Sequence record: SRR31156797_8623
DNA: 44,986 nucleotides
Strand: one strand, 5' to 3'
Shown: one piece after another, positions 1-42,401 of the stretch
Numbering within the stretch: position 1 is the stretch's first letter
How the letters are laid out: each line of letters begins with the position of its first letter
Position numbers and translations under genes: made by a program
The notes under the pieces: generated by a model
What the model saw: the letters and a program-made list of their open reading frames with translations, nothing else
Told to the model about the DNA's origin: nothing
Database searches by the model: none

Positions 1-861
1 CATACCAGATTTTAATGATACTGCATCATAACCTAGAGCACGCAGTACTGCAACAGTTTGTCCTGCTGTCTGCCCTGAATAGCATGTTACAACTAACTTG
101 CCTTCTGGCAGGTTAGCAAAATTTTCCTGCATGTTTTCACCAAATGGTACATTTACAGCACCATCAATGTGACCAGCTTCATAGTCTTCTGCTTTTCTAA
201 TATCTACAACTGTTACATCACCAGATTCAACAAGTGAAGCAACTTTGTCAGATGTCATAATATTACTTCCGCTGTCTGGAATTGCACTAAAATAATCCTG
301 AACAAAAGCTAATACTTCTTTATCAAAGCTTGCACCTGCATCTGGTAATTCAGCAGCTTCTGTTGACAGATATTCTTCATATCCTTCAACCTTTGTCAGT
401 CCATTATTAAAACCTGATTTAATTGATACTGCATCAATGCCTAGAAGGTTAAGCAGAGCAACAGTTTGTCCTGCAGTCTGACCTGAATAGCAGTATACAT
501 ACACTTTTTCATCAGTTGGAAGCATTGATACTTTTTCTGCTAGGTCTGCACCCCATGTTGCTAAATATGCACCTTCAACATGTCCTTCATCATATACATC
601 TTGTTTACGTATAGATAGGATAAATGGTTCTTCACCAGCTTCAATCAAAGGCAACACTTCATCCCAGCCAACTATTCTAGAACCAGGGTAATCAGCAAAA
701 TAGCTCATTGCAGCAGCTTCTAAACCTGCTTCTTCTGCTGTTTCAGTTTCTTGTGATTCTGCGTTAGCTTCTGTTGGTTCAATTGCTGCTTCTTCATTTG
801 CACAAGCCGCTAAAGAAAATAGCAAAGCAAGTGCTAGAACAAAAATTAATACTTTTTTCAT
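1..861 (-). CDS. Tandem rhodanese-domain lipoprotein (3' end runs off the window)
   Basis: Not in the ORF track; translated by hand. ATG at 861 with SD GAAAGGA. MKKVLIFVLALALLFSLAAC lipobox and an acidic linker, then two rhodanese domains (IRKQDVYDEGHVEGA...VYCYSGQTAGQ; DIRKAEDYEAGHIDGA...VTCYSGQTAGQ). Frame is open to position 1. Confidence 0.9.
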   Translation of the reverse strand, partial: MKKVLIFVLALALLFSLAACANEEAAIEPTEANAESQETETAEEAGLEAAAMSYFADYPGSRIVGWDEVLPLIEAGEEPFILSIRKQDVYDEGHVEGAYLATWGADLAEKVSMLPTDEKVYVYCYSGQTAGQTVALLNLLGIDAVSIKSGFNNGLTKVEGYEEYLSTEAAELPDAGASFDKEVLAFVQDYFSAIPDSGSNIMTSDKVASLVESGDVTVVDIRKAEDYEAGHIDGAVNVPFGENMQENFANLPEGKLVVTCYSGQTAGQTVAVLRALGYDAVSLKSGM

Positions 862-880
862 GTGTCCCATTCCTTTCATA

Positions 881-1774
881 TTAAGATGCATCCTGTGCTA
901 TCGGAACTTCGTTTACAGGAGCCTGAGGATTTTCCTCAGCTTCATATTCCAGCCAAGCCGCATCATATACTCGCACATCCTCATAACCAGCATTTTTTAG
1001 TGCTGTATAGGCTTGTGCTGCACGTACCGAAGTCTTACAGAAGAGAATAATCTTGTAATCAGATGTAATGCCTTTATCCAGATAAGTTAATTGTAAATCT
1101 CTGATTGACTTATATTCTCCGTTTGCGTAATTATTCCATAGATATTCGATGTTTACTGCTCCAGGAATTGTGCCTTCTGCATATTCTTCTGCACTTCTTG
1201 TATCCACAATGATTGTCTTTTCCTCTGGATCATCAAGAAGTAATTTGATATAGCTTAGGCTTACTACCAATTTCTTTTGCTTATCACCTGTATTATATTG
1301 GACAGCTTCCAGCGCAGATGCTTCGCTTGTTACTTCCAAGCCAGCCTTTTTCAAGGATTCAAAGCCACCGCTTACAACTTTTACGTTCAAATTATCATAT
1401 AGATTTAATGTCCATTGTACTCTTGCCGCAGACATATTGTTATTATTGTCATATACTAGGATAGTATCGCTCTCGCTTATACCTGCTGCGCCCATTACTT
1501 CGGCTATCTGCTCCTCTTCCGGTGCCATATTCTTGTATGGCTCATCAACAGTTAAGGCAGACATGGGAATATTAATCGCACCCTCTATGTGTTGAGTGTT
1601 GTACTCATCCTCTTCACATACTGCTACTAATACCGCCCCGCCATCTATAAGCTCAGCACAATCCTTTGCATCTACAATGAAATTACCTGTCTCTGCAAAT
1701 TCAAAATCTGCACAGCCAGCTAAACTTGCTGCCAACAATAGTATACAAACAAATATTATTGTGTTTTTTTTCAC
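881..1774 (-). CDS. Two-domain sulfurtransferase (TST/MST-like rhodanese) lipoprotein
   Basis: LAGC lipobox; HIEGA and TIPGA motifs. N-domain has Asp (YDNNNNMSAAR) at the catalytic position; C-domain has the active loop CKTSVRA and the VYDAAWLEY signature. Confidence 0.9.
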   Translation of the reverse strand: MKKNTIIFVCILLLAASLAGCADFEFAETGNFIVDAKDCAELIDGGAVLVAVCEEDEYNTQHIEGAINIPMSALTVDEPYKNMAPEEEQIAEVMGAAGISESDTILVYDNNNNMSAARVQWTLNLYDNLNVKVVSGGFESLKKAGLEVTSEASALEAVQYNTGDKQKKLVVSLSYIKLLLDDPEEKTIIVDTRSAEEYAEGTIPGAVNIEYLWNNYANGEYKSIRDLQLTYLDKGITSDYKIILFCKTSVRAAQAYTALKNAGYEDVRVYDAAWLEYEAEENPQAPVNEVPIAQDAS

Positions 1775-1797
1775 TATTATTCACCTTCTAATTGTTC

Positions 1798-3015
1798 TTA
1801 TAGGCATGCTTCAATCGCTTCACGTGTAATATATTCATTGACACTGTCAGTAATCTTGCCATCTTTAATGATAACAACTGAAGGACATCCCTTAACGCAA
1901 AGTCTCTTGGCAATACCTTCTGATTTGTAGGTATCTACCTTATGGCACTGATATTCAGGGTGTTTCAGACAGATGTCTTCAACAATTGGCAGGAATTCTC
2001 TGTGCTTTGCATCTACAGCATTGTAGATATATGCAATTCCGTTGCCAACCATAATCTGTTCATCAAATATTTCGCTGTCTGCGATATACTTTTCAGCCAT
2101 AACGCCTGCTGTAGCAGCGTCACCTACGCATGTAGCAACCTGACGCAGGAATCTGTCACGTACATCACCTGCGGCAAATACACCAAAGTTATTTGTCTCC
2201 ATGTTTTCATTGGTTTTGATGTATCCTCTCTCAGTCATATCCACAATACCCTTGTAAATATCTGTATTAGGAATAAATCCAATGAATAAGAAGCATGTGT
2301 GACAATCAACAGGAATAATTTCATTTGTCTTTAAATTCTTCAGGTTAACTGTTTTCAGCTCTTCATCACCTTCGTATGAATCAACTACTGTGTTCCATAT
2401 GAATTCCATCTTTGGATTTGCAAGTGCTGCCTGCTTTGCGATTTCATTACAGTCCATGATACCTTCATCATGGAGAATAGATACTTTAACCTTTGAAGCA
2501 AACTTTGTCAAGAACATACCTTCTTCGATTGCAGCATCGCCAGAACCTACAACCAGTACTTCCTTGTCCTGGTTTGCAGCTGCGTCACATGTTGCGCAGA
2601 ATGCAATGCCCTTGCCAAGATATTGTTCTTCGTTAGTTGCTCCTGTTACACGAGGTTTGCTTCCGTTACATATGATTACAGCTTTTGCTTCAAACCTGTT
2701 ACGGAATGTTTCAACCACTTTTACGTCGCCTGAAAAGTCAACTGTCTTTACATTTGTTAATTTAAACTTACAGCCGAATTTCTTTGCCTGCTTGTGGAAT
2801 AGCTCCATCAAGCCCAAACCTGATATTCCTTCTGGGAATCCAGGATAGTTTTCTATATCATTAGTATTTGTAGCAATGCCGCCTACTAATGCCTGTTCTA
2901 TTATTAATGTTTTTAGGCGTGCTCTACCGCAATAGATACCTGCTGTCAAACCAGAAGCACCTCCGCCGATAATAACAACGTCGTATTTTTCTACCTTTTT
3001 TTCTCTAGCCATCAT
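1798..3015 (-). CDS. trxB: Thioredoxin-disulfide reductase with C-terminal thioredoxin-like extension
   Basis: GGGASG FAD motif, IENYPGF, CATCD redox centre, GSGDAA, GVFAAGD; extra ~90 aa ending in GCPSVVIIKDGK. Confidence 0.88.
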   Translation of the reverse strand: MMAREKKVEKYDVVIIGGGASGLTAGIYCGRARLKTLIIEQALVGGIATNTNDIENYPGFPEGISGLGLMELFHKQAKKFGCKFKLTNVKTVDFSGDVKVVETFRNRFEAKAVIICNGSKPRVTGATNEEQYLGKGIAFCATCDAAANQDKEVLVVGSGDAAIEEGMFLTKFASKVKVSILHDEGIMDCNEIAKQAALANPKMEFIWNTVVDSYEGDEELKTVNLKNLKTNEIIPVDCHTCFLFIGFIPNTDIYKGIVDMTERGYIKTNENMETNNFGVFAAGDVRDRFLRQVATCVGDAATAGVMAEKYIADSEIFDEQIMVGNGIAYIYNAVDAKHREFLPIVEDICLKHPEYQCHKVDTYKSEGIAKRLCVKGCPSVVIIKDGKITDSVNEYITREAIEACL

Positions 3016-3032
3016 ATCTCCTATTTTATAAG

Positions 3033-3590
3033 TTACATAAAGAACTTAACTAACAATTTACTTCCAACAACAGCACCTAGGAACATAAATGCTGCAAATA
3101 CCCATCCAGACAGAGATAATGAAGCTATTCCGCTGTACAATGCACCGATATTACATCCGAATGCTATTCTTGCACCGTAGCCCATTAATAATCCGCCAAG
3201 ACATGCTGCAATGACCTGCTTAATGGATTTAATCTTTTTGAACTTAAATCCTGAAGCCATAAGTGTTGCAAACAATGCACCTGCGATAATACCTAAGTTA
3301 CGCCATGTTCCTGCATGATTTAATACACCAGCTTCCAGTGTAGCCTGTGCACCTGGTGAGCTGAAATAATACCATGTATCTACTGAGCCGCCTACAGCTT
3401 CAAAGAGCCATGCGCCCCAGTTAGCCAATACACCGGATACACCCCAAGGGCTGCCTGTTACAGCAAAAGTAACAATCTGAAAGACTGATAATAGTACTGC
3501 ACCAGTAATATATGGCAGGGCATTTTTAAACCACATCTTGTAGAAATCGTTAGTTTTTACTTTTTCAAAAAACTTTTTCAACCAATTCAC
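3033..3590 (-). CDS. YeeE/YedE (TsuA-type) sulfur transporter, C-terminal half
   Basis: Hydrophobic protein with PWGVSG and GGLLMGYGARIAFGCNIG motifs. The start may be the TTG at 3581, which has better SD spacing from GGAGG. Confidence 0.88.
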   Translation of the reverse strand: MNWLKKFFEKVKTNDFYKMWFKNALPYITGAVLLSVFQIVTFAVTGSPWGVSGVLANWGAWLFEAVGGSVDTWYYFSSPGAQATLEAGVLNHAGTWRNLGIIAGALFATLMASGFKFKKIKSIKQVIAACLGGLLMGYGARIAFGCNIGALYSGIASLSLSGWVFAAFMFLGAVVGSKLLVKFFM

Positions 3591-3617
3591 CTCCAGATAT
3601 ATGATTGATATTACACC

Positions 3618-3845
3618 TTATACCTTTTCGATGATGCATTCCCACTCGCCGTCATCTACTTCTTCTATTTCTACATTATGACCAGCTTTACGTGCCCATT
3701 CAGGAACATTCTTCATAGCACAGCTATGGTCTATTTGTACGATTAATACGTCACCTGCGTCTAACTTTTCCAAAGCCTTTTCTGCCTTAATTAATGGCAC
3801 TGGACATGCTTCGCCTAAACAATCAATTACTACTTCTTTACTCAT
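3618..3845 (-). CDS. TusA/YeeD-family sulfur carrier
   Basis: IDCLGEACPVP motif, DHSC; SD GGAGG before the ATG at 3845. Confidence 0.9.
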   Translation of the reverse strand: MSKEVVIDCLGEACPVPLIKAEKALEKLDAGDVLIVQIDHSCAMKNVPEWARKAGHNVEIEEVDDGEWECIIEKV

Positions 3846-3865
3846 TATAATTTCCTCCAATTTTT

Positions 3866-4558
3866 TTAATGTTCTTGTTCTCCAGCTTTTCTATTGCCCC
3901 ATTTATGTGCTATTACATATAATATGGCAATGATAGCTAAATTAGCGGATATACCGCCTAACCATCCTAGGTAGTCAGGTAAGAAAATTGCCTTTCCTGA
4001 CAGCATAAAATTCATCTTCCACCATCCAAAGTCATGTGCTCCCCACAGTGAACCAATGATGAAGAAGAATAGGGATAATACCTGCATCCAAAATCCTTCA
4101 CCGATTCTCATCAGAGTACCTGATGCACATCCGCCTGCAATTACCATACCGATACCAAACATAAATGCGCCAATGCCTGTAGCTATACTAATAGGTGCAA
4201 TATAGCTCTGCCCCGGAATAGTGTAACCATTCATATAGTAGCCATACTTAATAGCAGTGAAGCCAATGCTTGTGATTGCCAGTGCAATAAGTACTGCTCT
4301 GGTAACTGTGGTACTTCCAGTCAAATACGGATCTCTCATAGATGCAGTGAAACAAAATCTAGCTCTTTGAAGTATAAATCCAAAGATTGATCCTGTTATC
4401 CAGTAAAACACCAATTTTGAACTTCTAGTTCCAAGCCAGATAGCAATCGCTACAATTACGAAAAATGCAATGATGCCGATTGGTATCTGATTCTTCTTCT
4501 TTTTGCGCTTTCGGCTAGAAGATCTCGCTGATGCTCTGACAGTTGTCTCTGTCATCAT
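3866..4558 (-). CDS. YeeE/YedE (TsuA-type) sulfur transporter, N-terminal half
   Basis: GFILQRARFCF and FGIGMVIAGGCASGTL motifs; SD AAAGGA before the ATG at 4558. Confidence 0.88.
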   Translation of the reverse strand: MMTETTVRASARSSSRKRKKKKNQIPIGIIAFFVIVAIAIWLGTRSSKLVFYWITGSIFGFILQRARFCFTASMRDPYLTGSTTVTRAVLIALAITSIGFTAIKYGYYMNGYTIPGQSYIAPISIATGIGAFMFGIGMVIAGGCASGTLMRIGEGFWMQVLSLFFFIIGSLWGAHDFGWWKMNFMLSGKAIFLPDYLGWLGGISANLAIIAILYVIAHKWGNRKAGEQEH

Positions 4559-4728
4559 ATCACGTCCTTTCTTATACTTTGTGAATTTCTTCACATTCTT
4601 TGTTACTATTTTAACATACCTTTACGCTTATACAACATATTTAATACTTATACAATATAAGTTTTATTTATGGTATAATATTATGTGCTTATGGCAAATG
4701 TTAATCAAGATAGATAAAGGCGACAAAA

Positions 4729-5631
4729 ATGAACATTGAATCACTAAAATATTTCTATTTAATAGCAAGAACAGGCAATATTTCCTCTGTTGCCAGAGAT
4801 ATGCACATATCTCAATCTGCGCTTAGTCAGCAGATAAATAAACTGGAATGTGATATATCCAAATCACTTATGGAGCGAAGCAATAAGGGAGTCAGATTAA
4901 CTCCTGCAGGAGAGATAGTATTCAAATTTGCAGAAAATGTCTTAAAGACATATGACAATATGTTGGACGAAATCGCTACCTACGAAAAGCATAACATGAT
5001 AATCAGAATCAAAGCATGTCATTCCATTGCTGACTATGGCATCCCATGTACGGTAATGCTTTCAAACAAAAAATACCCGTTGCACAAATACGAATTATTT
5101 TCTGGAAGCAGTGAAGATATCATTGAGGATGTAGCTAACAATTTGTTTGATGTAGGCTTTTCCTACTGCAATAATAAGTCCAGAAGAAAACATAAGGATT
5201 TAGTTTATATAAAATGCGGAACAAATAAAATAGTATTAGTGGCAAAAAACAGCAAAAATATGCCTAATGAAATTGATACTTCTCAATTGATGGATTCCTG
5301 TATGATTACTTTTACCGGAGAAAACGATATAAATAATATTCTTATGACAAATCTGAAGAATCATGGTATATCAATGCCATCAATCCAATGTAACCTGGAA
5401 GTTGCAACCATAGAAAGCGCAAAAACTCTTGTATCCAAAGGATATGGACTAGCATTCTTACCCTATATCGCTGTTAAAGAAGAATTGTATAAAGGGGAAT
5501 TCAAGCTGATAGAAGTACCTGATTTCGAGATGGATTTGGATATCGTACTGCTTTTTAAAAAGGATCATGCAAAATATACAGAGGAATTTATTTCTTGGTT
5601 TATTAACGAGGGAAAGAATAGCTTCTGCTAA
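4729..5631 (+). CDS. LysR-family transcriptional regulator
   Basis: N-terminal HTH (GNISSVARDMHISQSALSQQINKLE...LTPAG) and GYGLAFLP; 300 aa; divergent from the yeeE operon. Confidence 0.93.
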   Translation: MNIESLKYFYLIARTGNISSVARDMHISQSALSQQINKLECDISKSLMERSNKGVRLTPAGEIVFKFAENVLKTYDNMLDEIATYEKHNMIIRIKACHSIADYGIPCTVMLSNKKYPLHKYELFSGSSEDIIEDVANNLFDVGFSYCNNKSRRKHKDLVYIKCGTNKIVLVAKNSKNMPNEIDTSQLMDSCMITFTGENDINNILMTNLKNHGISMPSIQCNLEVATIESAKTLVSKGYGLAFLPYIAVKEELYKGEFKLIEVPDFEMDLDIVLLFKKDHAKYTEEFISWFINEGKNSFC

Positions 5632-5697
5632 ACAATATATAAGCTGCCATTTTCAAATCTTATACAAAATAATTAAATTATAACTGAAGGAGAATTT

Positions 5698-7116
5698 ATG
5701 GATAGAAAAAGAATTATAAATATATTTGTTGGGATATCTGTTTTTGTTCTTATTGCAGTATTTGCAGAAGGTAAATTATTAAGTCAACCTGCTTCAATTG
5801 CCCTTGCTACTATGGCAATTATGATATATTGGTGGATAACCAAGCCTGTTCACCTATCCGTTACTGCACTTCTGCCGATTGTTGTTACATCTCTATTTAA
5901 TATAGTGTCAATCAACACAGTATTAGATGATTATTTCAGTCAGATTATTGTTCTGCTTATTGGTGCCAATATATTAACATTGACATGGGGCATCTGTGGA
6001 TTAGACAAGCGTATTGCTCTTAGAATGCTTATACTTATAGGAACATCATTTCGTCAGCAACTAATCGTTTGGTTTCTTATTGCAACAGTTTTAAGTGCAT
6101 TTTTACCAAATGCAGTAGTAGCAGCTGCCTTGTGTCCAATAGCTATTTCTATGATTAATCATTGTATAAAGATTGACAGCGGACTAGAAAAGAGCAATGT
6201 AAAGGCATGGATACTCCTTGCCATAGTCTGGGGTGCAGGTCTGGGCGGATTTGGTACACCTCTAGGCGGTGCTATGAACTTAGTTGCTATACAGCATATT
6301 GAAACTGCTCTGAATATTGAATACTCATATGTCACATGGATAGTAAAAATGCTGCCATATTTAATCGGGTTAACAGTCGCTATGGTGCTCTATTTCATGT
6401 TTATAAAACTAGATACAAAGAAAATTGCAGGAAGCAGAGAGTATTTCAAAAAAAGCTACAAAGAATTAGGGGAAATGAGCAAAGGCGAAAAGGTCTCCAT
6501 TACTCTTTTTACTATAGCAATTCTACTAGCATTTACCAGACCACTATATGCCAAGATTCTTCCAGCGTTTAAGCCGCCATATGCATTCCTTATTGTAGGT
6601 TTAATTGCCTTCTTCCTCAACGGTGATAATAAATCACCTATTATCAAATGGAATTATGCAGTAAAGAATATCAACTGGTCTTTGATGCTACTATTTTCTG
6701 GCGGTATGGCAGCAGGAAATCTATTAATTGGTACAGGTGCATCTGAGGGAATAGCTCAGTTTGTCACCAGCTTTGGTATTACAGGAATGCTTAGCCTAAT
6801 CATTGTGTTTATTGCTCTTGGAATGTTTTTATCAAACACTTCCAGCAATACTGCGGCAACTTCTGTACTTATACCGATGGTGCTCAGTGTGGCATTCGCT
6901 TTACCAAGTATATTGACAAAAGCAGATACACTTCCCTTCGTCTACGCTAGTGCAGCAGCATGTAACGCCGCATTTATACTGCCAACATCCATCAGAGCAA
7001 TCCCTGTAGGTTATAGTCTGGATACAAAATTCATGATGAAAAAGGGTTCTTTTGCACTGCTTGTTACATTCATTGCACTTATCATAATCGGCTATAGTGC
7101 TGTGCTTTTGGCTTAG
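5698..7116 (+). CDS. SLC13/DASS family Na+:anion (sulfate/dicarboxylate) permease
   Basis: Multi-TM protein with GLDKRIAL, GGFGTPLG, INWSL, SNTAA and AFILP motifs. Confidence 0.85.
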   Translation: MDRKRIINIFVGISVFVLIAVFAEGKLLSQPASIALATMAIMIYWWITKPVHLSVTALLPIVVTSLFNIVSINTVLDDYFSQIIVLLIGANILTLTWGICGLDKRIALRMLILIGTSFRQQLIVWFLIATVLSAFLPNAVVAAALCPIAISMINHCIKIDSGLEKSNVKAWILLAIVWGAGLGGFGTPLGGAMNLVAIQHIETALNIEYSYVTWIVKMLPYLIGLTVAMVLYFMFIKLDTKKIAGSREYFKKSYKELGEMSKGEKVSITLFTIAILLAFTRPLYAKILPAFKPPYAFLIVGLIAFFLNGDNKSPIIKWNYAVKNINWSLMLLFSGGMAAGNLLIGTGASEGIAQFVTSFGITGMLSLIIVFIALGMFLSNTSSNTAATSVLIPMVLSVAFALPSILTKADTLPFVYASAAACNAAFILPTSIRAIPVGYSLDTKFMMKKGSFALLVTFIALIIIGYSAVLLA

Positions 7117-7124
7117 GTGATAAA

Positions 7125-7346
7125 ATGAATATCAAGGATATCAAAGTACTCGACTGCTTTGGGGATATATGTCCCCTCCCTGTAATCAAAGTACAAAAAC
7201 AATTAGATGAAATGAAAGTGGGTGACAGCTTTATGCTGATAACAGATCATAGCTGTGTTAAGGAATCCATTTTGGATAAATATCCTGATGTTATAATTGA
7301 TGAGCCTATGAACGGCGTATGGGAAATTACATTTACAAAAAAATAA
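7125..7346 (+). CDS. TusA/YeeD-family sulfur carrier (second copy)
   Basis: LDCFGDICPLP, DHSC, GVWEI; 73 aa. Confidence 0.88.
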   Translation: MNIKDIKVLDCFGDICPLPVIKVQKQLDEMKVGDSFMLITDHSCVKESILDKYPDVIIDEPMNGVWEITFTKK

Positions 7347-7513: not shown

Positions 7514-8140
7514 ATGAGAAAAATAATCACATTACTATTTATAACATTGGTTTTGTCAGTATTTACACTTGGATGTACAGATAAATCCATTGCTAAACCT
7601 AGTAAAGCATCAGCGAGCACAGAAACCAGTAATTTTGGCTCAGCTGCTGCCAGTGTATCTGATAATGTTAATTTAGAAGATATGATGAAATATGCTATAG
7701 AAGATGAGTATTTAGCACGACAGGAATATGAATCTATCATAGAAGAATTCGGAGAACAAAAGCCATTTAGCAATATTATTCAGTCTGAAGAAACCCATAT
7801 TCAAGAACTACTAACATTGTATGAAACGTATGGATTTGAAGTTCCTGAAGATAAATCAAATGATTATGTTGTTATTCCTGAAAGCATCCAAGAAGCAATG
7901 GAAATTGGTATAGAAGCAGAAATCAACAATATTGCTATGTATGAAAGCTTCTTAGAGCAGGATTTGCCAGATGATGTAAGAGAAGTATTTACTGAGCTGA
8001 AAAATGGATCGGAAAATCATCTAGAGGCATTCAAAAGAGGTGCCTCACGTGGTGATAGCAGTGAACATGGAAATGGTACTGGTTCAGGCGACAAAGATGA
8101 AAATCAGAACCATGAACATGATAGAGACAGTGATAGCTAA
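7514..8140 (+). CDS. Ferritin-like (DUF2202-type) lipoprotein
   Basis: TLGC lipobox; AIEDEYLA, FSNIIQSEETH, EINNIAMY and GSENHLEAF diiron-type motifs; SD AGGAGG. Confidence 0.8.
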   Translation: MRKIITLLFITLVLSVFTLGCTDKSIAKPSKASASTETSNFGSAAASVSDNVNLEDMMKYAIEDEYLARQEYESIIEEFGEQKPFSNIIQSEETHIQELLTLYETYGFEVPEDKSNDYVVIPESIQEAMEIGIEAEINNIAMYESFLEQDLPDDVREVFTELKNGSENHLEAFKRGASRGDSSEHGNGTGSGDKDENQNHEHDRDSDS

Positions 8141-16961: not shown

Positions 16962-17351
16962 ATGGAAAACAATAACAATTTATCAAAGAATGACTTAACA
17001 GTAATGGAAATCATCTGGCAGCAGGGTGAAGCAACAAACGCTTCTATCCTAAAAAGCTTGAATGATGAGCCAAACTGGAGTCGATATACTGTGAAAACCT
17101 ATATAACCAGACTGCGTGAAAAAGGGTTAGTAGATGTGAAAGACACAAATACCAAAACATATATCTATTATCCATTAATCAGTAAGGAAAACTATCTCGC
17201 TGATGATGCCAGTCAATATCTTAACGACCATTTTAAGAACCTTACCCATATGGTGGCTGGATTGGTCGAGAATGAAAAAATAAGTGAAGATGCAATTGAT
17301 GACCTTGAAAAGTATATTCAGGAAATCAAAGCAAAAAGGCACAAGTCTTAG
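16962..17351 (+). CDS. BlaI/MecI/CopY-family repressor
   Basis: LTVMEIIW, WSRYTVKTYITRLREKG, YYPLIS. Confidence 0.93.
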   Translation: MENNNNLSKNDLTVMEIIWQQGEATNASILKSLNDEPNWSRYTVKTYITRLREKGLVDVKDTNTKTYIYYPLISKENYLADDASQYLNDHFKNLTHMVAGLVENEKISEDAIDDLEKYIQEIKAKRHKS

Positions 17352-17434
17352 ACTTGACAACGTTATAAATACAGAGCTAATAAGAATGCGTTTCACCAAG
17401 CTTTGTATATGTAAATGAAAGGTATATTCAAACT

Positions 17435-20053
17435 ATGAATATTATAAAAAATATATTGGAGATATCACTTTTATCATCAGTACTTATTGTGGTAGTTCTC
17501 GTATTAAGAACCATTTGGAAAAGTAAAATTAATTACAAAATACTATCCCTATTATGGATTCTGGTACTTGTTCGATTAATTACACCTTATACTTTTGATT
17601 CACCAATCCACTTTGACAGCTTATTTCCACAAGAAAAAGCTGAAGCACCAATTACTGTAGAATCAATAGCAGCTGAACCTATGGATACAAATGATGATAT
17701 TAGTCCTACGTACAATATAACGAATATTGATACTGATAATGAAGAAGTAACTGCACCAATAAATAATTCTCCAACCAGTGAAACTGTGCAGATAACGCTA
17801 CGGGACAAGCTTATATCATATACAAAAGCTATAGATTTATGGATAATAGCCTTAATTATCTGGCTATGCGGTGCAGTATTCGTATTTATACTGAATATCT
17901 CTGAATACTTACAGTTTAGCTTAATGATTAAAAAAGATATTCATTTGCTTAATCCAAGGCTGTCAGCAATATTAAATAAATACAAAGCTGTTCTTGACAT
18001 TAAAACTGATATAATAATCTTTGAATGCAAATATGTAAGCACACCTGTTACATTTAGGTGCTTTAAGCCAGTTATTCTCATGCCAAGGAAAATGACAAGG
18101 CTAATTGATGAGAAAAAGCTAAATATGATAGTGCTTCATGAATTGTGTCATATAAAAAGGCGGGATATACTAAAGAATTTCATTTGGTTGTTTTCAAAAG
18201 CAATTCATTGGTTTAATCCTTTAGTGTGGATTGCCTATAAAAGATATATTAGTGATATTGAGCTGTTTTGTGATGATATGGTTCTTAAATACATCAGTGA
18301 AGATGAGAGTTTTGAGTATTCGCAGAGTTTGATAGATGTTATAAAGCTATCCAGTACCAATAATAAAGTACCCGTTGCTCTGTCCTTTTGTGAGGACAAA
18401 ACCAAAATTAAGGAGCGTGTACAGAATATGATAGAACCAAAGAAAAAATTGAAGTCTGCTAGTATTATTAGTTTAATAATTGCAGTAATAATGATAGTTG
18501 CATGTTTTACAACAGCATGTATGAAAGAAGAAACAGCAGAAATTACACAAGTACAAACAGATTTGGCAGATGAAAACAATGTCACTAATACTGTGGAAGC
18601 AGAGCCAGTAAGTACAGAGACTGCAGTAATTCAACAAGAAAAAACTACTCCTTTTAATAACTCATGGGTTGAGGTAGGAACTGAGCAGAAAGCTATTGAG
18701 ATTGCACAAGGATTAAATATATCAAATGCAGACAGCTTTACCTATGAAGAATTATATTCTGGGGTTTTGCCTACTCATAGAGTAGATGCAAATGACAGCA
18801 CAGACACAATGTATTTTATATATGATTTCAATGGTGAATTCCTAAACGTCGACATAGATACAAATTATAATGAAAATAAAGCAACTATTACCGAGCAGGA
18901 AGCACAAAACAAGGCTATAGAATATATAAAGAATATTTATGGCGATGTAGAGGTAACTATAGATGAATGTAATTTAAGTCGTGATACTTTCTTTGAAATA
19001 AACGGCAGCATCTATAAAGAGAGCGAAAACAGCACAAGAACATTAGATATGTGTGTAAATGGTCAAGGTGAATTCTGCAGCATACGTGCTAAATATGATG
19101 CTATGTATGTATACGGTCTTGGAGAAGAAGTGAAAAATGAAGTACTGAAATACTCACAAGATGAAAATGTCGATGTTGTTTTTGAATCAATGGATTATTT
19201 AGATTCACAGTTAATATATACTTTCTTCTTGAGCAGCACAGACCAGCCAACCGTTAACGAACAGTCAGTGAAACTGCTGGCATCTGACTATTCATTAATT
19301 GAGTATTCATCTGGCCTTGGAGCTACTAAGGAAAAAATTCAACTAGATGATGATGAGTTTGCTAGCCTTATAAAGAAGTATTTGGATAAGTATTATCCAG
19401 CGTATTCTGGACTATCTATAGAGAGTATACAAAGTACGTATAGCGAGGCATATGTATTGATGCCCATACCATCTACTGATAATTATGTTTCTATGTCAAT
19501 TTATGCGGATGGCTCTCTGAAGTCTATAAAGATTGTAGCAGCTGATACGCTCAATCAAGGCGACAGCAGTACAACCGATACGGAGATCGAGGCAGTATTA
19601 GCCGCAATTCCAAATGTGGGATATCCGGTTTTGATTGATAAGGAGTATGAATTTGTACGAAAATATGCTGATATGGATCAAGAAAATGTAAATATATACG
19701 AATTTACGTATTATGTCGATGAGCCTAGCGTTTGGGACTATCCATTTGTACTGCAGCTATATCACTATGTTGACGATAATAGGTATCGTGCGAAAATAAA
19801 TCCTATTGTAGAAGAGCTAAATATACTTAGTGAAGATGAAGCAATAGAAATCGCAAAAAAAATAGTAGCAGATGAGGAAAACATCCCCGAATCCAAGCTG
19901 GAATGCGTATACAAAAGACTTGAGGTTAACCAAATACTTACCTATGCATTTGACTTTGAATACGATAACACCCAATACGGTGTAATGCTTTATCCCGATA
20001 CAGGCTTAGAGCTATATGGAGAGGACGAGGCTATTGTCAGACAATGGAATTAA
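17435..20053 (+). CDS. BlaR1/M56-family metallopeptidase sensor with a non-PBP (PepSY-like repeat) extracellular domain
   Basis: LWILVLVRLITP, HELCHIKRRD, IHWFNPLVW, ELFCDD, KIKERV; long acidic C-terminus with ITEQEAQNKA and LSEDEAIEIA repeats. Confidence 0.88.
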   Translation: MNIIKNILEISLLSSVLIVVVLVLRTIWKSKINYKILSLLWILVLVRLITPYTFDSPIHFDSLFPQEKAEAPITVESIAAEPMDTNDDISPTYNITNIDTDNEEVTAPINNSPTSETVQITLRDKLISYTKAIDLWIIALIIWLCGAVFVFILNISEYLQFSLMIKKDIHLLNPRLSAILNKYKAVLDIKTDIIIFECKYVSTPVTFRCFKPVILMPRKMTRLIDEKKLNMIVLHELCHIKRRDILKNFIWLFSKAIHWFNPLVWIAYKRYISDIELFCDDMVLKYISEDESFEYSQSLIDVIKLSSTNNKVPVALSFCEDKTKIKERVQNMIEPKKKLKSASIISLIIAVIMIVACFTTACMKEETAEITQVQTDLADENNVTNTVEAEPVSTETAVIQQEKTTPFNNSWVEVGTEQKAIEIAQGLNISNADSFTYEELYSGVLPTHRVDANDSTDTMYFIYDFNGEFLNVDIDTNYNENKATITEQEAQNKAIEYIKNIYGDVEVTIDECNLSRDTFFEINGSIYKESENSTRTLDMCVNGQGEFCSIRAKYDAMYVYGLGEEVKNEVLKYSQDENVDVVFESMDYLDSQLIYTFFLSSTDQPTVNEQSVKLLASDYSLIEYSSGLGATKEKIQLDDDEFASLIKKYLDKYYPAYSGLSIESIQSTYSEAYVLMPIPSTDNYVSMSIYADGSLKSIKIVAADTLNQGDSSTTDTEIEAVLAAIPNVGYPVLIDKEYEFVRKYADMDQENVNIYEFTYYVDEPSVWDYPFVLQLYHYVDDNRYRAKINPIVEELNILSEDEAIEIAKKIVADEENIPESKLECVYKRLEVNQILTYAFDFEYDNTQYGVMLYPDTGLELYGEDEAIVRQWN

Positions 20054-26700: not shown

Positions 26701-27462
26701 TTATACTAAATTAATAATATTGTAGCTGCATATAATAATAACTAAAATAACAGCCCCATTAAATATACGCCTGATATTTTTCTCTGAAAGTTTTATATTT
26801 AAATATGAACCTATGAGCCCTCCGATAATTGCAGCAGGTATCATATACAAAAGAACTTTGAAATCTTCCACCATTGATACCATACCGTATAATATCTTTG
26901 TGATTATTCCAGCAAATTGAGAAAATAATATTATAAATACTGATATTTTAGCAGATGTGCGTAGCTCCGTTCCGATTAGAACACATAGAATAGCTACATT
27001 TATCGGTCCACCTCCTATTCCTAGAAAGGAACTCAGCATACCTAGAAACAAACCAACCAACGCTTGTGCCCAAAGTGCCTGAATCTCCATCTTCTTAAAC
27101 TTATGATAAAATAAACAGAAAATTAATAATGCAATAATAATTGCAGACTGGATAATTGTAACTGTACTAGGATTGCACCCATCCTTTACCAAACTGAAAA
27201 TCTTTGAACCCAGAATTCCGCCGAATACAGCACCTACAGTAACGGCAATAATAACTCTGTTTATTTTAAAGCCGCTTCTTATCTGATTAATAGTTGATAC
27301 AATAGCCATGGAAAAAACCGTAATAGATGATAAAAATGATATTGTTACAACATTGTAATTGGATATCAAATCCAAAGTTGGTTTAATTATTACTCCGCCG
27401 CCTAAGCCAGCTGAAGCACCGACTATTGTAGCAAAAAGTATTATTGCAAAATATATTAGCAT
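26701..27462 (-). CDS. TauE/SafE (TSUP) family exporter
   Basis: AGLGGGVIIKP and LGIGGGPINV repeats; ATG at 27462 after GGAGG. Confidence 0.9.
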   Translation of the reverse strand: MLIYFAIILFATIVGASAGLGGGVIIKPTLDLISNYNVVTISFLSSITVFSMAIVSTINQIRSGFKINRVIIAVTVGAVFGGILGSKIFSLVKDGCNPSTVTIIQSAIIIALLIFCLFYHKFKKMEIQALWAQALVGLFLGMLSSFLGIGGGPINVAILCVLIGTELRTSAKISVFIILFSQFAGIITKILYGMVSMVEDFKVLLYMIPAAIIGGLIGSYLNIKLSEKNIRRIFNGAVILVIIICSYNIINLV

Positions 27463-27848
27463 AAATCCTCCATACCAAGATAATGTCAATATTAATGTAA
27501 AACTAATAAATATAAAGAAAATTATATCATAAAATGCTATCTATACGATAGTAATAATAATTGTTATATGATATCCACATATATCCCCGATTTTCATACA
27601 CAATTAGAAACTGACAATAATACAGAAAATATGTCATAATACGACTTAATTATGTAAATTATAAAACATTTCCCTATTAAATAATATATTAAGTTAACAT
27701 AGAAATAATTCTTGTTAACATTTCACATCCAATCTATACATACTGATAAAAACTATTTTACAAATCAAACACATTCTGCGAATAAAAATTATTTAAAATT
27801 TCTGTGTAATGCCATTTAGGCAAATATTTAGTTAAGTGGAGAATCGAA

Positions 27849-28874
27849 ATGAAAAAAAGAATTGTATTAGTTGTTTTAGTTCTTGCTGCAATAGTTTCAG
27901 CAGCTGGATGTGCTAGCGAAGAACCAATCGTAATGGCTTGGTATCCAAACGAATCAGGTGAAGAACTAGAAGCAGCTCGTGACGCTTTCGGTGCAATCAT
28001 CACAGAAGCAACAGGTCGTGAAGTTGAACACAAAACAACTACAGACTACGCTATCGCTATCGAAGCTCTTGTAAACGGAAATGCTGACATCGGATGGACA
28101 GGCGGCGAAGGCTATGTACAAGCTCATGACAAAAACGAAGCAGTCCTGCCTGCATTCACTTCTTCAGGCAAGTCTGGTACTTTGGATGACGCAGTATACT
28201 ACAGCTGGTTATGCGTTAAAAAAGGTAACGAAGACGCTTGGAAGGATGCTGACGGAAACTACACAATCGATAACCTGCCAGGTTCAGTTTTCTCATTCGT
28301 ATCTAACTCATCAACTTCAGGTTTCAAAGTTCCTTCAACAAGCATTGCTGGCTACTTCTCATCTAACTATGATGAGTGGGCAGACCTAACAAAAGACGAC
28401 CTTATCGAAGGCGGCGAAGACATGTTCTTCAGCAAGGTTCTATTCGGTGGTTCTCACCAATTGTCTTGTGTTAACCTGCTAACAGAGCAATCAGAAATAT
28501 CTGCTTTCTGCGACGTTTGCGTAGGCAACTATGTAGAATTAGTAGAAGGCGAACACAACCGTCCAGGTGCTGTTTATCAAGTAATCGAAGGTGCTGAAGA
28601 GCCATTCGATACATTGGTAGGCGAGCAGTTCGTAGCTATCAGTGTAACACCAGTTCTTAACGCTCCTTTTATCTACAACAGTGAAACTCTTTCAGAAGAA
28701 GAAATCACAAAAATTGTTGAATTATTCACATCTGATGAAGTAGCAGCTAACGAAGCTATCTTTGTTCCAAGTGATTCAGACGCTATCGGTCTATTCTCAA
28801 AGAAGAGCGATGAAATGTGTTTCGTAGCAGTTGATGATGCATGGTATCAACCAATCAGAGACTTAGGTAAGTAA
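27849..28874 (+). CDS. phnD: Phosphonate ABC transporter substrate-binding lipoprotein
   Basis: AAGC lipobox, DYAIAIEAL, YYSW, SSTSGF, GGSH; first gene of the phn operon. Confidence 0.9.
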   Translation: MKKRIVLVVLVLAAIVSAAGCASEEPIVMAWYPNESGEELEAARDAFGAIITEATGREVEHKTTTDYAIAIEALVNGNADIGWTGGEGYVQAHDKNEAVLPAFTSSGKSGTLDDAVYYSWLCVKKGNEDAWKDADGNYTIDNLPGSVFSFVSNSSTSGFKVPSTSIAGYFSSNYDEWADLTKDDLIEGGEDMFFSKVLFGGSHQLSCVNLLTEQSEISAFCDVCVGNYVELVEGEHNRPGAVYQVIEGAEEPFDTLVGEQFVAISVTPVLNAPFIYNSETLSEEEITKIVELFTSDEVAANEAIFVPSDSDAIGLFSKKSDEMCFVAVDDAWYQPIRDLGK

Positions 28875-28894
28875 TTAGAGCATACTTGACACTT

Positions 28895-28929
28895 AAGCAT
28901 TTAGCATATAATGTGCTAAATGCTTTTTT
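28895..28929 (+). terminator. Intra-operon stem-loop/attenuator after phnD
   Basis: AAGCATTTAGCA...TGCTAAATGCTT followed by TTTT. Confidence 0.7.
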
Positions 28930-28954
28930 CACATTATTCGAAGGGAAAAATATA

Positions 28955-29839
28955 ATGCAATTATTAAAAATCGAAAATCTAACAAAGGATTACTCCGCTG
29001 ACACAAGAGCGCTGGATAATGCCAGCTTTAAAATCCAATCAGGAGAATTTATCAGTATCATCGGACCTTCAGGAGCAGGTAAGTCAACCCTGCTAAGATG
29101 TCTAAACAGAATGATTGATTCTACAGAAGGCACAATTGACTTTGACGGAATTTCCGTAAATGATTTAAAAAAGAATGAATTAAGGTCACTAAGAACAAAA
29201 ATCGGAATGATATTCCAGCACTATAACTTAGTAGACAGATTAAGCGTTCTAGAGAATACACTGCACGGCAGATTGGGCTACAAATCATCTATAGCTGGTG
29301 TAATCGGCATCTACTCACACGAAGAGAAAGTAAATGCACTGAAAATACTTGATTTCCTTGGACTAAGCGAGCAGGTATATAAAAGATGCGACCAATTATC
29401 AGGCGGACAAAAACAGAGGGTTGGTATAGCAAGAGCATTGATACAAGAGCCAAAGATGATACTCTGCGATGAGCCAATTGCTTCTCTTGACCCATCTACA
29501 TCAAAGATAATAATGGATCATCTAAGAAGAATTTCAGATGAAATGGGCATCACATGCCTAGTTAACCTCCACCAAGTAAATGTTGCTATCAAGTATTCAG
29601 ATAGAATAATCGGTATCAGAGACGGAGTAATCGTCTATGACGGCTCACCAAACTTAAGCGTAGAGGACATTCAGAATATTTATGGCTCTGAAGCCGATGA
29701 ACTAATACTGGATTTAGAACATAAACAGGAAGTAGATGATAAGGTTACAGAAGTAATTCCTAAAACAAATATAATAGATATTGAAACTCTGGCTGAAGAG
29801 GAAGCTATAGCTGAGAAAGAAGTAACAGCTTATGAATAA
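28955..29839 (+). CDS. phnC: Phosphonate ABC transporter ATPase
   Basis: GPSGAGKS, IGMIFQHYNLV, LSGGQKQRV, DEPIASLDP, NLHQV; acidic C-terminal tail. Confidence 0.93.
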   Translation: MQLLKIENLTKDYSADTRALDNASFKIQSGEFISIIGPSGAGKSTLLRCLNRMIDSTEGTIDFDGISVNDLKKNELRSLRTKIGMIFQHYNLVDRLSVLENTLHGRLGYKSSIAGVIGIYSHEEKVNALKILDFLGLSEQVYKRCDQLSGGQKQRVGIARALIQEPKMILCDEPIASLDPSTSKIIMDHLRRISDEMGITCLVNLHQVNVAIKYSDRIIGIRDGVIVYDGSPNLSVEDIQNIYGSEADELILDLEHKQEVDDKVTEVIPKTNIIDIETLAEEEAIAEKEVTAYE

Positions 29840-30641
29840 GTATGAAAATCTAAACTCTATTCAAAAGCGTAAGCTGGGCACTTGGGGATTTGCTTTGGGT
29901 GTGCTTATAGTAACTCTTATTTCAATAATCATTACTGATTATGATGTTATAGACGGATTTACTTCTATTCCAAAAGCAATCGCATGGTCAAGTAAAAATT
30001 TCTACCCAAACAAACACGTTATGCACAGACTCCCAAAGATACTTAAGTATCTTACCAGAACAATATTTTTGGCAATTACATCAACTGTTGCAGCGAGTCT
30101 GTTCGCATGTGTATTTGCATTCCTAGGCTCTGAAACAACCAGAGTAAACAAAGCATTCAGCTCAATTACCAGAGGAATAGCATCTCTGTTTAGGAACATT
30201 CCAGTTGTTGCATGGGCTATGATACTATTGCTGTCATTTGGTCAATCTGATTTAACAGGCTTTTTGGCACTATTTTTTGTCACTTTCGGCTTTTTGACCA
30301 GAGCATTTATGGAGACAATTGACGAATCCGGAAAAGATGCAGTAGAGGGGCTTAAGGCCACTGGAGCTACTTGGTGGCAAATCGCTTTCTGTGCAGTTCT
30401 GCCAGCCAGTCTGCCTCAGATGGTATCGTGGATGCTATTCATGGTGGAAACTAATATCAGATCATCGACTTTAGTTGGTATGCTGACGGGTACTGGTGTT
30501 GGCTTTATTTTTCAGCTTTACTACAAGGCATTCCATATGGAATATAACTACAACGCAGCATCATTAGTTGTTGTATGCATAGTGCTGACAGTATTTATAA
30601 TAGAATTTGTTTCCAACTCAATAAGGAGGGTAATCCTATGA
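29832..30641 (+). CDS. phnE: Phosphonate ABC transporter permease
   Basis: FRNIP, EGLKATGA, ETNIRSSTLVG. Confidence 0.9.
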   Translation: MNKYENLNSIQKRKLGTWGFALGVLIVTLISIIITDYDVIDGFTSIPKAIAWSSKNFYPNKHVMHRLPKILKYLTRTIFLAITSTVAASLFACVFAFLGSETTRVNKAFSSITRGIASLFRNIPVVAWAMILLLSFGQSDLTGFLALFFVTFGFLTRAFMETIDESGKDAVEGLKATGATWWQIAFCAVLPASLPQMVSWMLFMVETNIRSSTLVGMLTGTGVGFIFQLYYKAFHMEYNYNAASLVVVCIVLTVFIIEFVSNSIRRVIL

Positions 30642-31465
30642 GAACCGCTAGTCCTGACGATAAACGCATCGTACTAAAGCCAATGACAAAGCAAAAGTTT
30701 ATACTTGGTCTTACTATCATTGTGTTACTTATATTAACTATATATGGCTTCTATTCATTCGATTATGGCGAAAAGTCAATATTACAAGCCATAAGCGATA
30801 CCTTCCGTGATCTAGGTAAGATGTTTACAGAGCCTGAACTAGAGCACTTTACATTTGGTAAAGCTCTGAGAGAAGTAAGCATAACCTTAGGTCTAGCAGT
30901 GCTTTCTACTCTAATAGGTGCAATCATAGCACTTATTCTGTCTCTATTTGCTGCAGAAAACCTGTCAACAAAATGGGCTTCAACTATAATTAAAGGATTT
31001 GTTGCATTTATTAGGGCTGTACCTACAGTACTATGGGTGTTGATTTTCGCAGTTGCAGCTGGGCTTGGTTCTGTAGCTGCTGTAATAGGTATGACTTTTC
31101 ACACAATTGGTTATCTGATAAAAGCATTTTCTGAAGCATTTGAGGAAGTTGCAGAGGGCACAATTGAAGCTCTAAAAGCATCTGGTGCTAATTGGTGGCA
31201 GATTATTTTCCAAGCTATACTTCCTTCAACATCTACTTATCTATTGTCATGGACATTCTTAAGATTTGAAATCAACTTTACTGTTGCAGTTGCAATGGGT
31301 GCAGCAGCAGGGGCAGGCGGTATAGGTTATCAGCTGTTCATGGCAAGTGCATACTACTTCAACATTCGTGAAGTCGGAACAATCACGTATCTAATATTAG
31401 CAATTGCTATTATTATCGAAATATTTGCAACAAGATTGAAAGTGAAAATTCACGTAGGAGATTAA
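30638..31465 (+). CDS. phnE: Phosphonate ABC transporter permease (second)
   Basis: IRAVP, EALKASGA, LRFEINF, GAGGIG; ATG at 30638 after AAGGAGG. Confidence 0.9.
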   Translation: MRTASPDDKRIVLKPMTKQKFILGLTIIVLLILTIYGFYSFDYGEKSILQAISDTFRDLGKMFTEPELEHFTFGKALREVSITLGLAVLSTLIGAIIALILSLFAAENLSTKWASTIIKGFVAFIRAVPTVLWVLIFAVAAGLGSVAAVIGMTFHTIGYLIKAFSEAFEEVAEGTIEALKASGANWWQIIFQAILPSTSTYLLSWTFLRFEINFTVAVAMGAAAGAGGIGYQLFMASAYYFNIREVGTITYLILAIAIIIEIFATRLKVKIHVGD

Positions 31466-31466
31466 A

Positions 31467-31913
31467 TTGAAAAGAAAACTTAGAACAAAAATTCTGGTCA
31501 AGGATTATAAGCTCTGTCAGGATTTATCTGAAGAGATTGAACAGAATTACACAATAAATGTAATAGAACCTGCCAATACCTGTTTGGTAATGGCTAAGGT
31601 TCTAGAATCTGTCGGTAAAACTGAATTCTATATGTGCGAGATTTTGACCACTGAGGCACGAGTTGAAATAGACGGAAATCTTGGTATAGGTATTATAATG
31701 GGCGACAGCAAAGACCAAGCCATACAGCTGGCAATAATTGATTCTGCTATAAAGGCAAAGCTCAAAGAAACTGCTGCATGGGAGAAAAGACTGCTATCTG
31801 CAAATGAAGAATTGTTACACACCGAACAGGCAGCATTCTCTATAGTAGAAAAGTCAAGGGTAAAATTCGATATAATGGAGGAATATTTTGATGGTATCGG
31901 TAAAAAAAGCTGA
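31467..31913 (+). CDS. phnG: C-P lyase subunit PhnG
   Basis: LVMAKV..S..FYMCEILTTEARV, A.ID, SRVKF; position in the operon; TTG start. Confidence 0.85.
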   Translation: MKRKLRTKILVKDYKLCQDLSEEIEQNYTINVIEPANTCLVMAKVLESVGKTEFYMCEILTTEARVEIDGNLGIGIIMGDSKDQAIQLAIIDSAIKAKLKETAAWEKRLLSANEELLHTEQAAFSIVEKSRVKFDIMEEYFDGIGKKS

Positions 31914-32502
31914 TTTTGATACAGTTCACGATTTGCAGCAGGCTTATAAGAAAATGCTCTATGCGCTTTCATATCCAGGCAAAATATACAATGTATCCGA
32001 ACTGTCAGAGAAAATAAGCCTTAACTTTGACTATAACAAATCATTGCTGCTTTTGGCTCTATGCATTGCAGATAGTGAAGTAACAATATCAATCACAGGT
32101 GATAACAGTAACAATGAATCAGCTGGGAATTACTTAAGAAACATAGCATATACAAATATTGATGAAAATAGAATACCTGACTATCTGATACTATCTGGCG
32201 ATTTTAATGTTGAAAATATTACAGATACGATTGCAATTGGTACATTGATTGATCCTCACAAAAGCACAACTGTATTTATCGAGGTTGAAAAAATTAGTGA
32301 TACAGCTCAATACGAATTATCAGGACCAGGGATTAAAGACAAAACTAACATTAGTATTGATGGCATCTTTGATGAATTTATAAGACTCAGAAATACAAAA
32401 TGCAGAAAATTCCCATTAGGATTTGATATATTTGTATGCGATAAGGTGGGGAATATTATTGGAATTCCAAGAACGACTAAGATTGATGAAGGGAGTATGT
32501 AA
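31891..32502 (+). CDS. phnH: C-P lyase subunit PhnH
   Basis: ALSYPG, GTLIDPHKSTT, LSGPGI, FPLGFD, GIPRTT. Confidence 0.92.
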   Translation: MVSVKKADFDTVHDLQQAYKKMLYALSYPGKIYNVSELSEKISLNFDYNKSLLLLALCIADSEVTISITGDNSNNESAGNYLRNIAYTNIDENRIPDYLILSGDFNVENITDTIAIGTLIDPHKSTTVFIEVEKISDTAQYELSGPGIKDKTNISIDGIFDEFIRLRNTKCRKFPLGFDIFVCDKVGNIIGIPRTTKIDEGSM

Positions 32503-35296: not shown

Positions 35297-35307
35297 GTGA
35301 GGTAAAT

Positions 35308-37109: not shown

Positions 37110-37110
37110 T

Positions 37111-37806: not shown

Positions 37807-37811
37807 ATAGT

Positions 37812-42371: not shown

Positions 42372-42401
42372 TATTATCCTTTCAAATGTTAGATATTATT
42401 T

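Follow-up and report, generated by a model that had tools for sequence, protein, structure and literature searches.

The first 7,346 nucleotides of the 44,986-nt stretch SRR31156797_8623 (the window hereafter, at its full length) carry a locus for two exported rhodaneses (RhdA and RhdB), a YeeE-type channel split over two genes (yeeN and yeeC), two TusA-type carriers and a thioredoxin reductase-like flavoprotein (TrxB), together with a LysR regulator and a DASS permease (Table 1). All nine open reading frames (ORFs) are found at the listed coordinates and all nine genes are real, with profile matches to PF04143 (the two channel halves), PF01206 (twice), PF07992 with a weak PF00085, PF00581 (twice), LysR and PF00939. 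The six minus-strand genes are separated by gaps of 17-27 nt, and the packed operon divergent from lysR, the permease gene and tusA2 that the initial annotation described is confirmed in its ORFs and families, while its nine-gene parts list requires two corrections, namely that the thioredoxin (Trx) domain of TrxB has no CxxC and that the visible RhdA is probably half a protein. The start of yeeN was placed at the ATG of MMTE, the ORF also opening at the GTG at position 4594. The lipoboxes LAAC and LAGC were identified by eye, without a signal-peptide predictor, and the lipobox Cys of RhdB is invariant in 30/30 aligned sequences.

Table 1. Features of the sulfur-relay locus at positions 1 to 7,346 of SRR31156797_8623
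Feature	Position	Strand	Description	Remark
rhdA	1..861	-	exported lipoprotein, rhodanese of RdlA type with two catalytic CYSGQTA domains in the visible part	no stop, cut by window start
rhdB	881..1774	-	two-domain TST-type rhodanese lipoprotein, active site CKTSVR, C-terminal tether	
RhdB tail	881..940	-	Pro-rich tether leading to Gln-Asp-Ala-Ser-COOH	proposed glycosylated sulfur-carrying arm
trxB	1798..3015	-	TrxB-like flavoprotein, CATC redox pair, HDEGxMDC	proposed TusA-persulfide reductase
yeeC	3033..3590	-	split YeeE, C-terminal half	third relay Cys (GCNIG, equivalent to StYeeE C293)
tusA1	3618..3845	-	YeeD/TusA carrier, CPVP and second Cys (DHSC)	
yeeN	3866..4558	-	split YeeE, N-terminal half	StYeeE C22 and C91 equivalents
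palindromes	4580..4616		two palindromes upstream of yeeN, Rex-operator-like	4580-4595 perfect, 4601-4616 one mismatch
lysR	4729..5631	+	divergent LysR regulator	best model LysR_Sec_metab, 150 bits, under cut-off of 250
DASS permease gene	5698..7116	+	clade-specific accessory permease	PF00939
tusA2	7125..7346	+	second TusA (CPLP, DHSC)	travels with lysR

A scan with YeeN retrieved 80 loci, 37 of them with at least 50% identity and many cut by contig edges, from Bacillota, Spirochaetota, Mariniplasma, Latescibacterota, Dehalococcoidia and Thermotogae. Among the 37, TusA1 is encoded in 34, YeeC in 35, TrxB in 31, RhdB in 23 and RhdA in 19, with LysR in 15, TusA2 in 13 and DASS in 2. The core yeeN-tusA-yeeC-trxB recurs in several phyla, and a reverse scan with RhdA returned the same gene arrangement in the six long close loci; the clustering is not due to chance, and the co-conservation anticipated by the initial annotation is borne out in both order and content. 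RhdB orthologues occur in 34 of the 72 Halanaerobiales, 48 of the 221 Spirochaetia and 32 of the 211 Peptostreptococcales genomes searched. The operon is real, widespread and uncharacterised: while each part has known kin, neither the combined system nor the tail chemistry proposed below was found described in literature searches that mostly missed subscription journals and did not cover bioRxiv supplements.

YeeN and YeeC cover complementary parts of the PF04143 profile (1-156 and 164-310) and together hold the three relay Cys of S. thermophila YeeE (C22, C91 and C293, aligned to 6LEO), whose motifs are conserved as FC in 36/36, GGC in 36/36 and GCN in 34/35 ORFs. The Cys relay suggested from the sequence is thus complete, although distributed over two halves. 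Both TusA proteins carry CPxP and a second Cys, and these features are shared with the YeeE(TsuA)-YeeD(TsuB) systems of E. coli and S. thermophila (6LEO, 8J4C). On the other hand, the channel is here encoded by two genes with tusA between them instead of a single chain of 330-350 amino acids (aa), is accompanied by its own reductase and by exported rhodaneses, and scores below the curated NCBIfam cut-offs, with 53-70 bits for the YeeE halves against 400 for TsuA and 49 bits against the exception cut-off of 147.5 for TsuB. A second split YeeE-TusA cassette (about 40% identity) occurs in Peptostreptococcales (L296-L302, e.g. L298:6948-14000) alongside an ABC transporter and TST paralogues that lack the tail; TrxB is absent.

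The reductase departs from its family at the site of donor binding. Across 121 aligned TrxB sequences, CATC and GSGD are invariant (121/121), while the HRRxxxR motif, which contacts the 2'-phosphate of NADPH in thioredoxin reductases (available text of PMC5627308 and PMC10880999), is replaced by HDEGxMDC, whose H, G, D and C (the extra Cys189) are equally invariant (121/121). This replacement makes NADPH an unlikely donor, and the retained GSGDAA (GxGxxA) together with the acidic residues points to NADH as the most likely one. The protein is not an FFTR, a type that in the available text of PMC10880999 has lost the NAD(P)H motifs altogether, since GxGxxA is retained; it scores 306.6 bits for TIGR01292, under the cut-off of 343.45. 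Furthermore, its C-terminal Trx-fold domain is devoid of CxxC, with no conserved pair of CxxC columns across the 121 sequences, and the active Trx domain assumed at first is not supported. TrxB therefore resembles low-Mr thioredoxin reductases, including non-NADPH types, in its CxxC, FAD motifs and GxGxxA, and differs from them by the loss of HRRxxxR, the added Cys189, the inert Trx domain and the lack of an adjoining thioredoxin gene. C238/C241, considered as a second redox pair, was ruled out, C238 being variable (96/121) and both residues mapping to a core strand. Relatives outside the cassette, of about 40% identity, share the acidic pocket and the inert domain with an Ala at the position of Cys189 (HDEGxMDA) and, among the matches listed and as read by eye, precede a separate thioredoxin in glycine/betaine-reductase-like clusters; such 400-aa proteins are found in Halanaerobiales (L173-L200).

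What this enzyme may reduce is suggested by the sister loci. Cassette TrxB is found in 2 of the 72 Halanaerobiales genomes, and in 15 of the 20 Halanaerobiales loci read, a fused YeeE and a CDR-rhodanese adjoin the rhodanese genes, with TauCAB-like genes. Among 72 rhodanese-bearing loci, 35 have TrxB only, 19 have CDR only, none has both and 18 have neither. The CDR type (L038 copy) matches 3ICR, 3NTA and the CoA-persulfide reductase 8A56 with E<=5e-130, so that an enzyme of the CoA-persulfide reductase/Npsr type occupies in sister loci the reductase slot that is held in the window by a TrxB fold. This swap supports a persulfide-reductase role for this TrxB and is the best indirect evidence that TusA and TrxB would together do a persulfide reductase's job; the dedicated persulfide reductase of the initial annotation is thereby strengthened, but its NADPH donor is not retained. 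In Clostridium (L038, L040), a split YeeE-TusA cassette lies beside a CDR-rhodanese and a fused YeeE, with no exported rhodanese in the stretch read.

Like RdlA, the visible RhdA (287 aa, two domains) is a tandem rhodanese with one catalytic Cys per domain and a TST-type gene beside it; its nearest relatives measure 529-555 aa and have four CY[ST]GQTA domains, which indicates that the window holds probably half of a four-domain protein. The motifs of RhdA and RhdB match, by eye, an adjacent pair that the PMC5497025 supplement labels as the reciprocal best hits of Q6Q1E1/Q6Q1E2 from H. congolense, and the rhodaneses share 39-46% identity with the Halanaerobiales copies. The proposal of surface rhodaneses for sulfane sulfur agrees with this family match to RdlA and its neighbour in a thiosulfate reducer. 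As in Halanaerobium congolense, a two-active-site CY[ST]GQTA rhodanese stands beside a TST-type rhodanese with the same tail; unlike RdlA, RhdA is a lipoprotein, probably of four domains, encoded with split YeeE, TusA and TrxB. The available text of PMC5497025 pairs the rhodanese with the Asr sulfite reductase, and the main text of that paper holds 0 mentions of YeeE or thioredoxin.

The supplement of the same paper contains a proteome of the sister version of the locus. In its Table S3 the Sequence column is offset against the protein IDs, by 328 rows in this region. Table S2 gives ID 11116 as a 301-aa rhodanese, and a shift of 328 rows aligns eleven consecutive sequences with the known gene order; this remapping was chosen because it restores that order, including a skipped permease. 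The column at face value, which would give wrong assignments, was ruled out, because a membrane subunit of 375 aa would then have 61-70 peptides and Table S2 would be contradicted. After remapping, the raw WG8 spectral counts without and with thiosulfate are 41, 47, 39 vs 68, 74, 64 for RhdB, 87, 97, 80 vs 126, 136, 118 for RdlA, 171, 171, 157 vs 220, 234, 217 for CDR and 18, 16, 11 vs 21, 26, 22 for YeeE. RhdB, RdlA, TauA, CDR and YeeE thus lie between 11 and 234 counts and rise 1.3-1.6-fold with thiosulfate, and the ligase, GT-C and ABC parts of the glycosylation module described below stay at 0-5 counts with no rise. On this mapping, a response of expression to thiosulfate is seen, in the sister version only.

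The two palindromes upstream of yeeN resemble the Rex operator consensus. The palindrome is perfect in 7/7 loci of the window's clade, and a Rex-like palindrome with at most 2 mismatches precedes 25 of 46 yeeN genes vs 5.2 in base shuffles. Rex senses NADH/NAD+, and control by Rex would for that reason fit an electron sink, but the regions in front of RhdB and GT-C likewise score above those of other genes; a rex gene (PF06971) is found in 4 of the 5 genomes tested. The DASS permease, present in seven loci that all belong to the window's own clade, counts as one event. Among 47 loci with ligase and GT-C, a substrate-binding protein (SBP)-type ABC importer is encoded in 30, DASS in 5, neither in 12 and both in 0. 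Being clade-specific and never beside an SBP-type ABC importer, DASS is more likely an alternative importer, accessory to the system, than a core exporter, and the earlier view of a core part moving the co-product out is not sustained (2/37 loci).

A further feature of the locus is the C-terminus of RhdB, which consists of a Pro-rich tether and a D-x-Ser ending (QDAS in the window) whose terminal Ser is invariant (30/30). Neighbour clustering revealed a second module in most long loci. It comprises a GT-C membrane protein (20/37) and an L-amino-acid-ligase-like ATP-grasp protein (19/37), together with RmlA/B, a WecE that scores above cut-off, an ABC importer and an ArnC-like GT2, which stands alone or as a fusion. 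GT-C, GT2 and ligase directly follow rhdA in L001 and L081, the closest relatives, and these genes probably lie just beyond the window start. The GT-C model (pLDDT 93.9) matches ALG12, STT3, AglB, ArnT and PglB, a fold that names no acceptor, and the acidic DE motif of its first outer loop is invariant (D40/E41, 41/41). RhdB and GT-C occur together in 33 of the 72 Halanaerobiales genomes and singly in 2, together in 45 of the 221 Spirochaetia genomes and singly in 5, and together in 31 of the 211 Peptostreptococcales genomes, where RhdB is found without GT-C in 1 and GT-C without RhdB in 3. A full glycosylation module with RhdA and with no RhdB in the genome was seen in L309 and L310 (G809 and G786), by recent loss or for another acceptor.

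Tails were read in 111 genomes with true RhdB orthologues. The D-x-S tail is found in 105, 101 of which also carry GT-C, and the six genomes with another tail, belonging to four lineages, have GT-C in 0/6. In four of these six (G077-G080) the final residues are GGCG or GGCGG; the other two (G081 and G772) end in Gly-TGA-TAG with a similar downstream hairpin (z -3.3 and -1.3) and a selA gene in both; the TGA is a probable selenocysteine (Sec) codon. The association of tail type with GT-C yields a Fisher p = 9e-8, which overstates independence, and G772 is the only strong RhdB orthologue without GT-C in its order, its tail having been read once that was known. In a FastTree phylogeny from which the tail was excluded, three separate origins of Cys tails and one of TGA tails fall within the Ser-tailed group, and 120 homologues of a GGCG form show 105 DxS-type, 12 Cys and 3 Gly endings. 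The tail count leaves out 10 Peptostreptococcales genomes, G145 and G587 (matches in the tail-less outgroup), G204 and 7 Halanaerobiales (tails not read), metagenome loci without genomes, the G-ending P0124, P0125 and P0306 (stop codon unreadable) and P0378. The class of non-Ser tails stays small, since no RhdB orthologue other than the seeds turned up among 181 genomes from the order of G080, 87 from the class of G077 and 201 from that of G081. The probable C-terminal Sec rhodaneses (L031:3881-3925 in Dehalococcoidia and L308:9560-9604 in Peptostreptococcales) are possibly an unlisted selenoprotein form, and a different exported rhodanese of 387-389 aa is likewise GGCG-armed (L098:9992-11161, L116:1062-2225).

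A model for the tail is offered by the SoxYZ -> SoxT1A -> Rhd442/TusA sulfur import of Hyphomicrobium denitrificans (available text of PMC11582611), in which sulfane sulfur is handed by an extracytoplasmic carrier to a channel of the YeeE family and to a carrier in the cytoplasm. Some RhdBs (L018, L019, L023, L030) have a GGCG(G) tail that resembles the arm of SoxY; the SoxY-type carrier Cys is absent from the QDAS tail of the window. The Sox import is oxidative, whereas here no Sox enzymes are encoded and the arm belongs to a rhodanese, with Ser as its usual last residue. The simplest reading of the tails would be that their end must offer a thiol or a selenol and that, where it is a Ser, the module provides such a group by way of a sugar, which would then replace the Cys of a SoxY-like swinging arm. 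In its full form, this proposal is a N-(thiol-acyl, probably cysteinyl) 4-amino-4,6-dideoxyhexose, borne on polyprenyl phosphate and placed on the Ser of the exported rhodanese, that would ferry sulfane sulfur to YeeE for a non-NADPH TrxB; we hold it as tentative, falling a little short of probable. It shares with ArnB/ArnC/ArnT and with TfpO/TfpM the logic of an aminosugar, a polyprenyl-phosphate GT2 and a GT-C, with a precedent for a terminal Ser acceptor (available text of PMC9829042), and departs from them by an L-amino-acid-ligase-like ATP-grasp in the pathway, by a sulfurtransferase arm as proposed acceptor and by the absence of a flippase gene among those found. Structure prediction adds little: the single-sequence RhdB model has a pLDDT of 38, and the complex of GT-C with the RhdB tail, predicted without alignments, scores 0.01.

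Alternatively, an ordinary acylated aminosugar could protect or position RhdB, the Cys and Sec tails being a separate solution. The O-glycosylation of C-terminal Ser by TfpO/TfpM is indeed known for pilins without any redox role (available text of PMC9829042), and no acyl donor for the ATP-grasp was found. However, the four module-less lineages all end the tail in, or within 1-2 residues of, Cys or TGA, and, 4 fragmented genomes aside, neither loss of the tail nor a bare Ser is seen without the module. We consider an ordinary sugar unlikely, though it is the strongest competitor of the thiol-bearing one.

Taken together, the locus is best read as an inward route of sulfane-sulfur reduction serving as an electron sink in fermenting anaerobes, which we favour with moderate confidence. 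At the surface, RhdA (RdlA type) and RhdB would cleave thiosulfate or take up polysulfide or S0 to form enzyme persulfides, leaving sulfite outside; the family match is observed and the reaction is proposed after that of RdlA. The flexible tail of RhdB would act as a SoxY-like swinging arm bringing sulfur to the channel, with an end in Cys or Sec in some lineages and, in the Ser-tailed majority to which the window belongs, probably with a thiol-bearing aminosugar installed by the linked WecE/ATP-grasp/GT2/GT-C module, a chemistry suggested by the observed correlation of tail and GT-C. A YeeN-YeeC heterodimer would then move the sulfur inward through its three Cys to TusA1, a flux for which the conserved residues are in place. 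Finally, the TrxB variant would release sulfide from the TusA-persulfide by reduction, drawing on a donor that is most likely NADH rather than NADPH; the loss of the NADPH motif is observed, and donor and substrate are proposed. LysR-TusA2, and possibly Rex, would tune expression, with DASS as accessory importer.

Three other readings of the locus were weighed. An inward relay feeding cysteine and cofactors, as for E. coli TsuA/TsuB, would account for the two YeeD-type Cys of TusA1 and for the sulfonate-type ABC importers of many loci, and YeeE/YeeD is an assimilatory route of thiosulfate uptake in the available text of PMC11073785. It appears improbable, as the sister proteins in the proteome tables are very abundant and rise rather than fall with thiosulfate, the operator is Rex-like and no cysteine synthase is found among annotated neighbour families recurring in at least 3 of 40 loci. 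Still less probable is an outward flow, in which TrxB, TusA and YeeE send out sulfur or reducing power that the rhodaneses use to sulfurate or maintain a glycan which the linked module makes for the surface. The tight linkage of rhodanese and glycosylation genes (33 both/2 single in Halanaerobiales, 45/5 in Spirochaetia), the silence of the GT-C fold on its acceptor and the retention of GT-C without RhdB in G809 speak for it, but precisely in the genomes whose RhdB has gained a Cys or TGA tail, the sulfur genes stay intact with no glycosylation gene present, and the glycosylation proteins are far scarcer in the sister proteome (0-5 counts vs 11-234). To the import or detoxification of selenite-derived selenium, proposed earlier as an alternative cargo, we give very little credence, sulfur being the likelier cargo: YedE/FdhT (96 and 108 bits) and LysR_Sec_metab lead the NCBIfam matches, all under cut-off, a YedE-like protein moves selenium in Methanococcus (available text of PMC11582611) and two genomes have probable Sec tails, but selA was not found in 4 of the 10 operon-bearing genomes tested (G001, G003, G077 and G080, drafts), neither selD nor selA is among the annotated recurring neighbours, the abundance in the proteome tables far exceeds trace-element needs, and a Sec tail reveals the chemistry of the carrier, not its cargo.

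Several observations weigh against the inward route or its thiol-sugar arm. The available text of PMC11582611 doubts a direct Cys-to-Cys transfer in YeeE, given a spacing of 7 A. Two Tissierellales loci carry an ordinary HRRD TrxB, and rex was not found in the draft genome of the nearest relative. The glycosylation genes lie outside the window, their presence being deduced from relatives that are 83-91% identical; in the spirochaete G003 a search found no close WecE (best 34%), so that WecE is not universal, and a hydrophobicity screen of 11 loci found no GtrA-like flippase ORF. GT-C is present without RhdB in 5 genomes, one of them single-contig (G809) with the whole module kept, and the four D-x-S genomes in which GT-C was not found are all fragmented assemblies, with the ligase lacking in 2 and elsewhere in 2. 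The six non-Ser-tail genomes are drafts of 1.4-2.8 Mb. The proteome concerns the sister version (fused YeeE and CDR) in unnormalised counts, the mapping of its IDs is our own reconstruction of a shifted column, and the rise is small from a level already high without thiosulfate.

The favoured inward route bears on the physiology of fermenters such as Halanaerobium and Sediminispirochaeta, which produce sulfide from thiosulfate or sulfur and cause the souring of oil and gas wells. The account of souring by a rhodanese and a sulfite reductase, as far as the available parts of PMC5497025 give it, leaves the sulfane atom unexplained. The operon and its CDR sister offer a complete and testable route for that atom, and the operon names a candidate reductant for YeeD-type carriers. 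If the thiol-sugar is true, a glycan would be a catalytic sulfur carrier and part of the missing sulfane route in rhodanese-dependent thiosulfate and S0 reduction. To our knowledge, and from our literature searches, such a prosthetic group on a Ser tail would be of a kind without precedent, and the arm, once confirmed, categorically new.

Elsewhere in the window, the gene at 38643-40076 (-) encodes a membrane protein that combines a CcdA/DsbD-like part with two thioredoxin-like CxxC domains (by eye; weak PF13098) and could supply reductant to surface proteins, and a TauE/SafE-family exporter at 26701-27489 (-), unlinked to the operon, is a candidate for sulfite export. A ferritin-like DUF2202 lipoprotein gene (7514-8140, +) adjoins the cluster and has weak homologues near the spirochaete loci L010 and L021. 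The stretch also contains a BlaI-like repressor (by eye) with a long BlaR1/M56 protein (16962-20053, +) and, in a row at 41589-44520 (-), an inositol-monophosphatase/CysQ-like gene, a DHH-like gene (by eye) and a gene for a nuclease lipoprotein. Finally, an operon for phosphonate uptake and C-P lyase (27849-38648, +; Phosphonate-bd and PhnJ confirmed) has two one-mismatch Rex-like palindromes inside its first gene, probably by chance.

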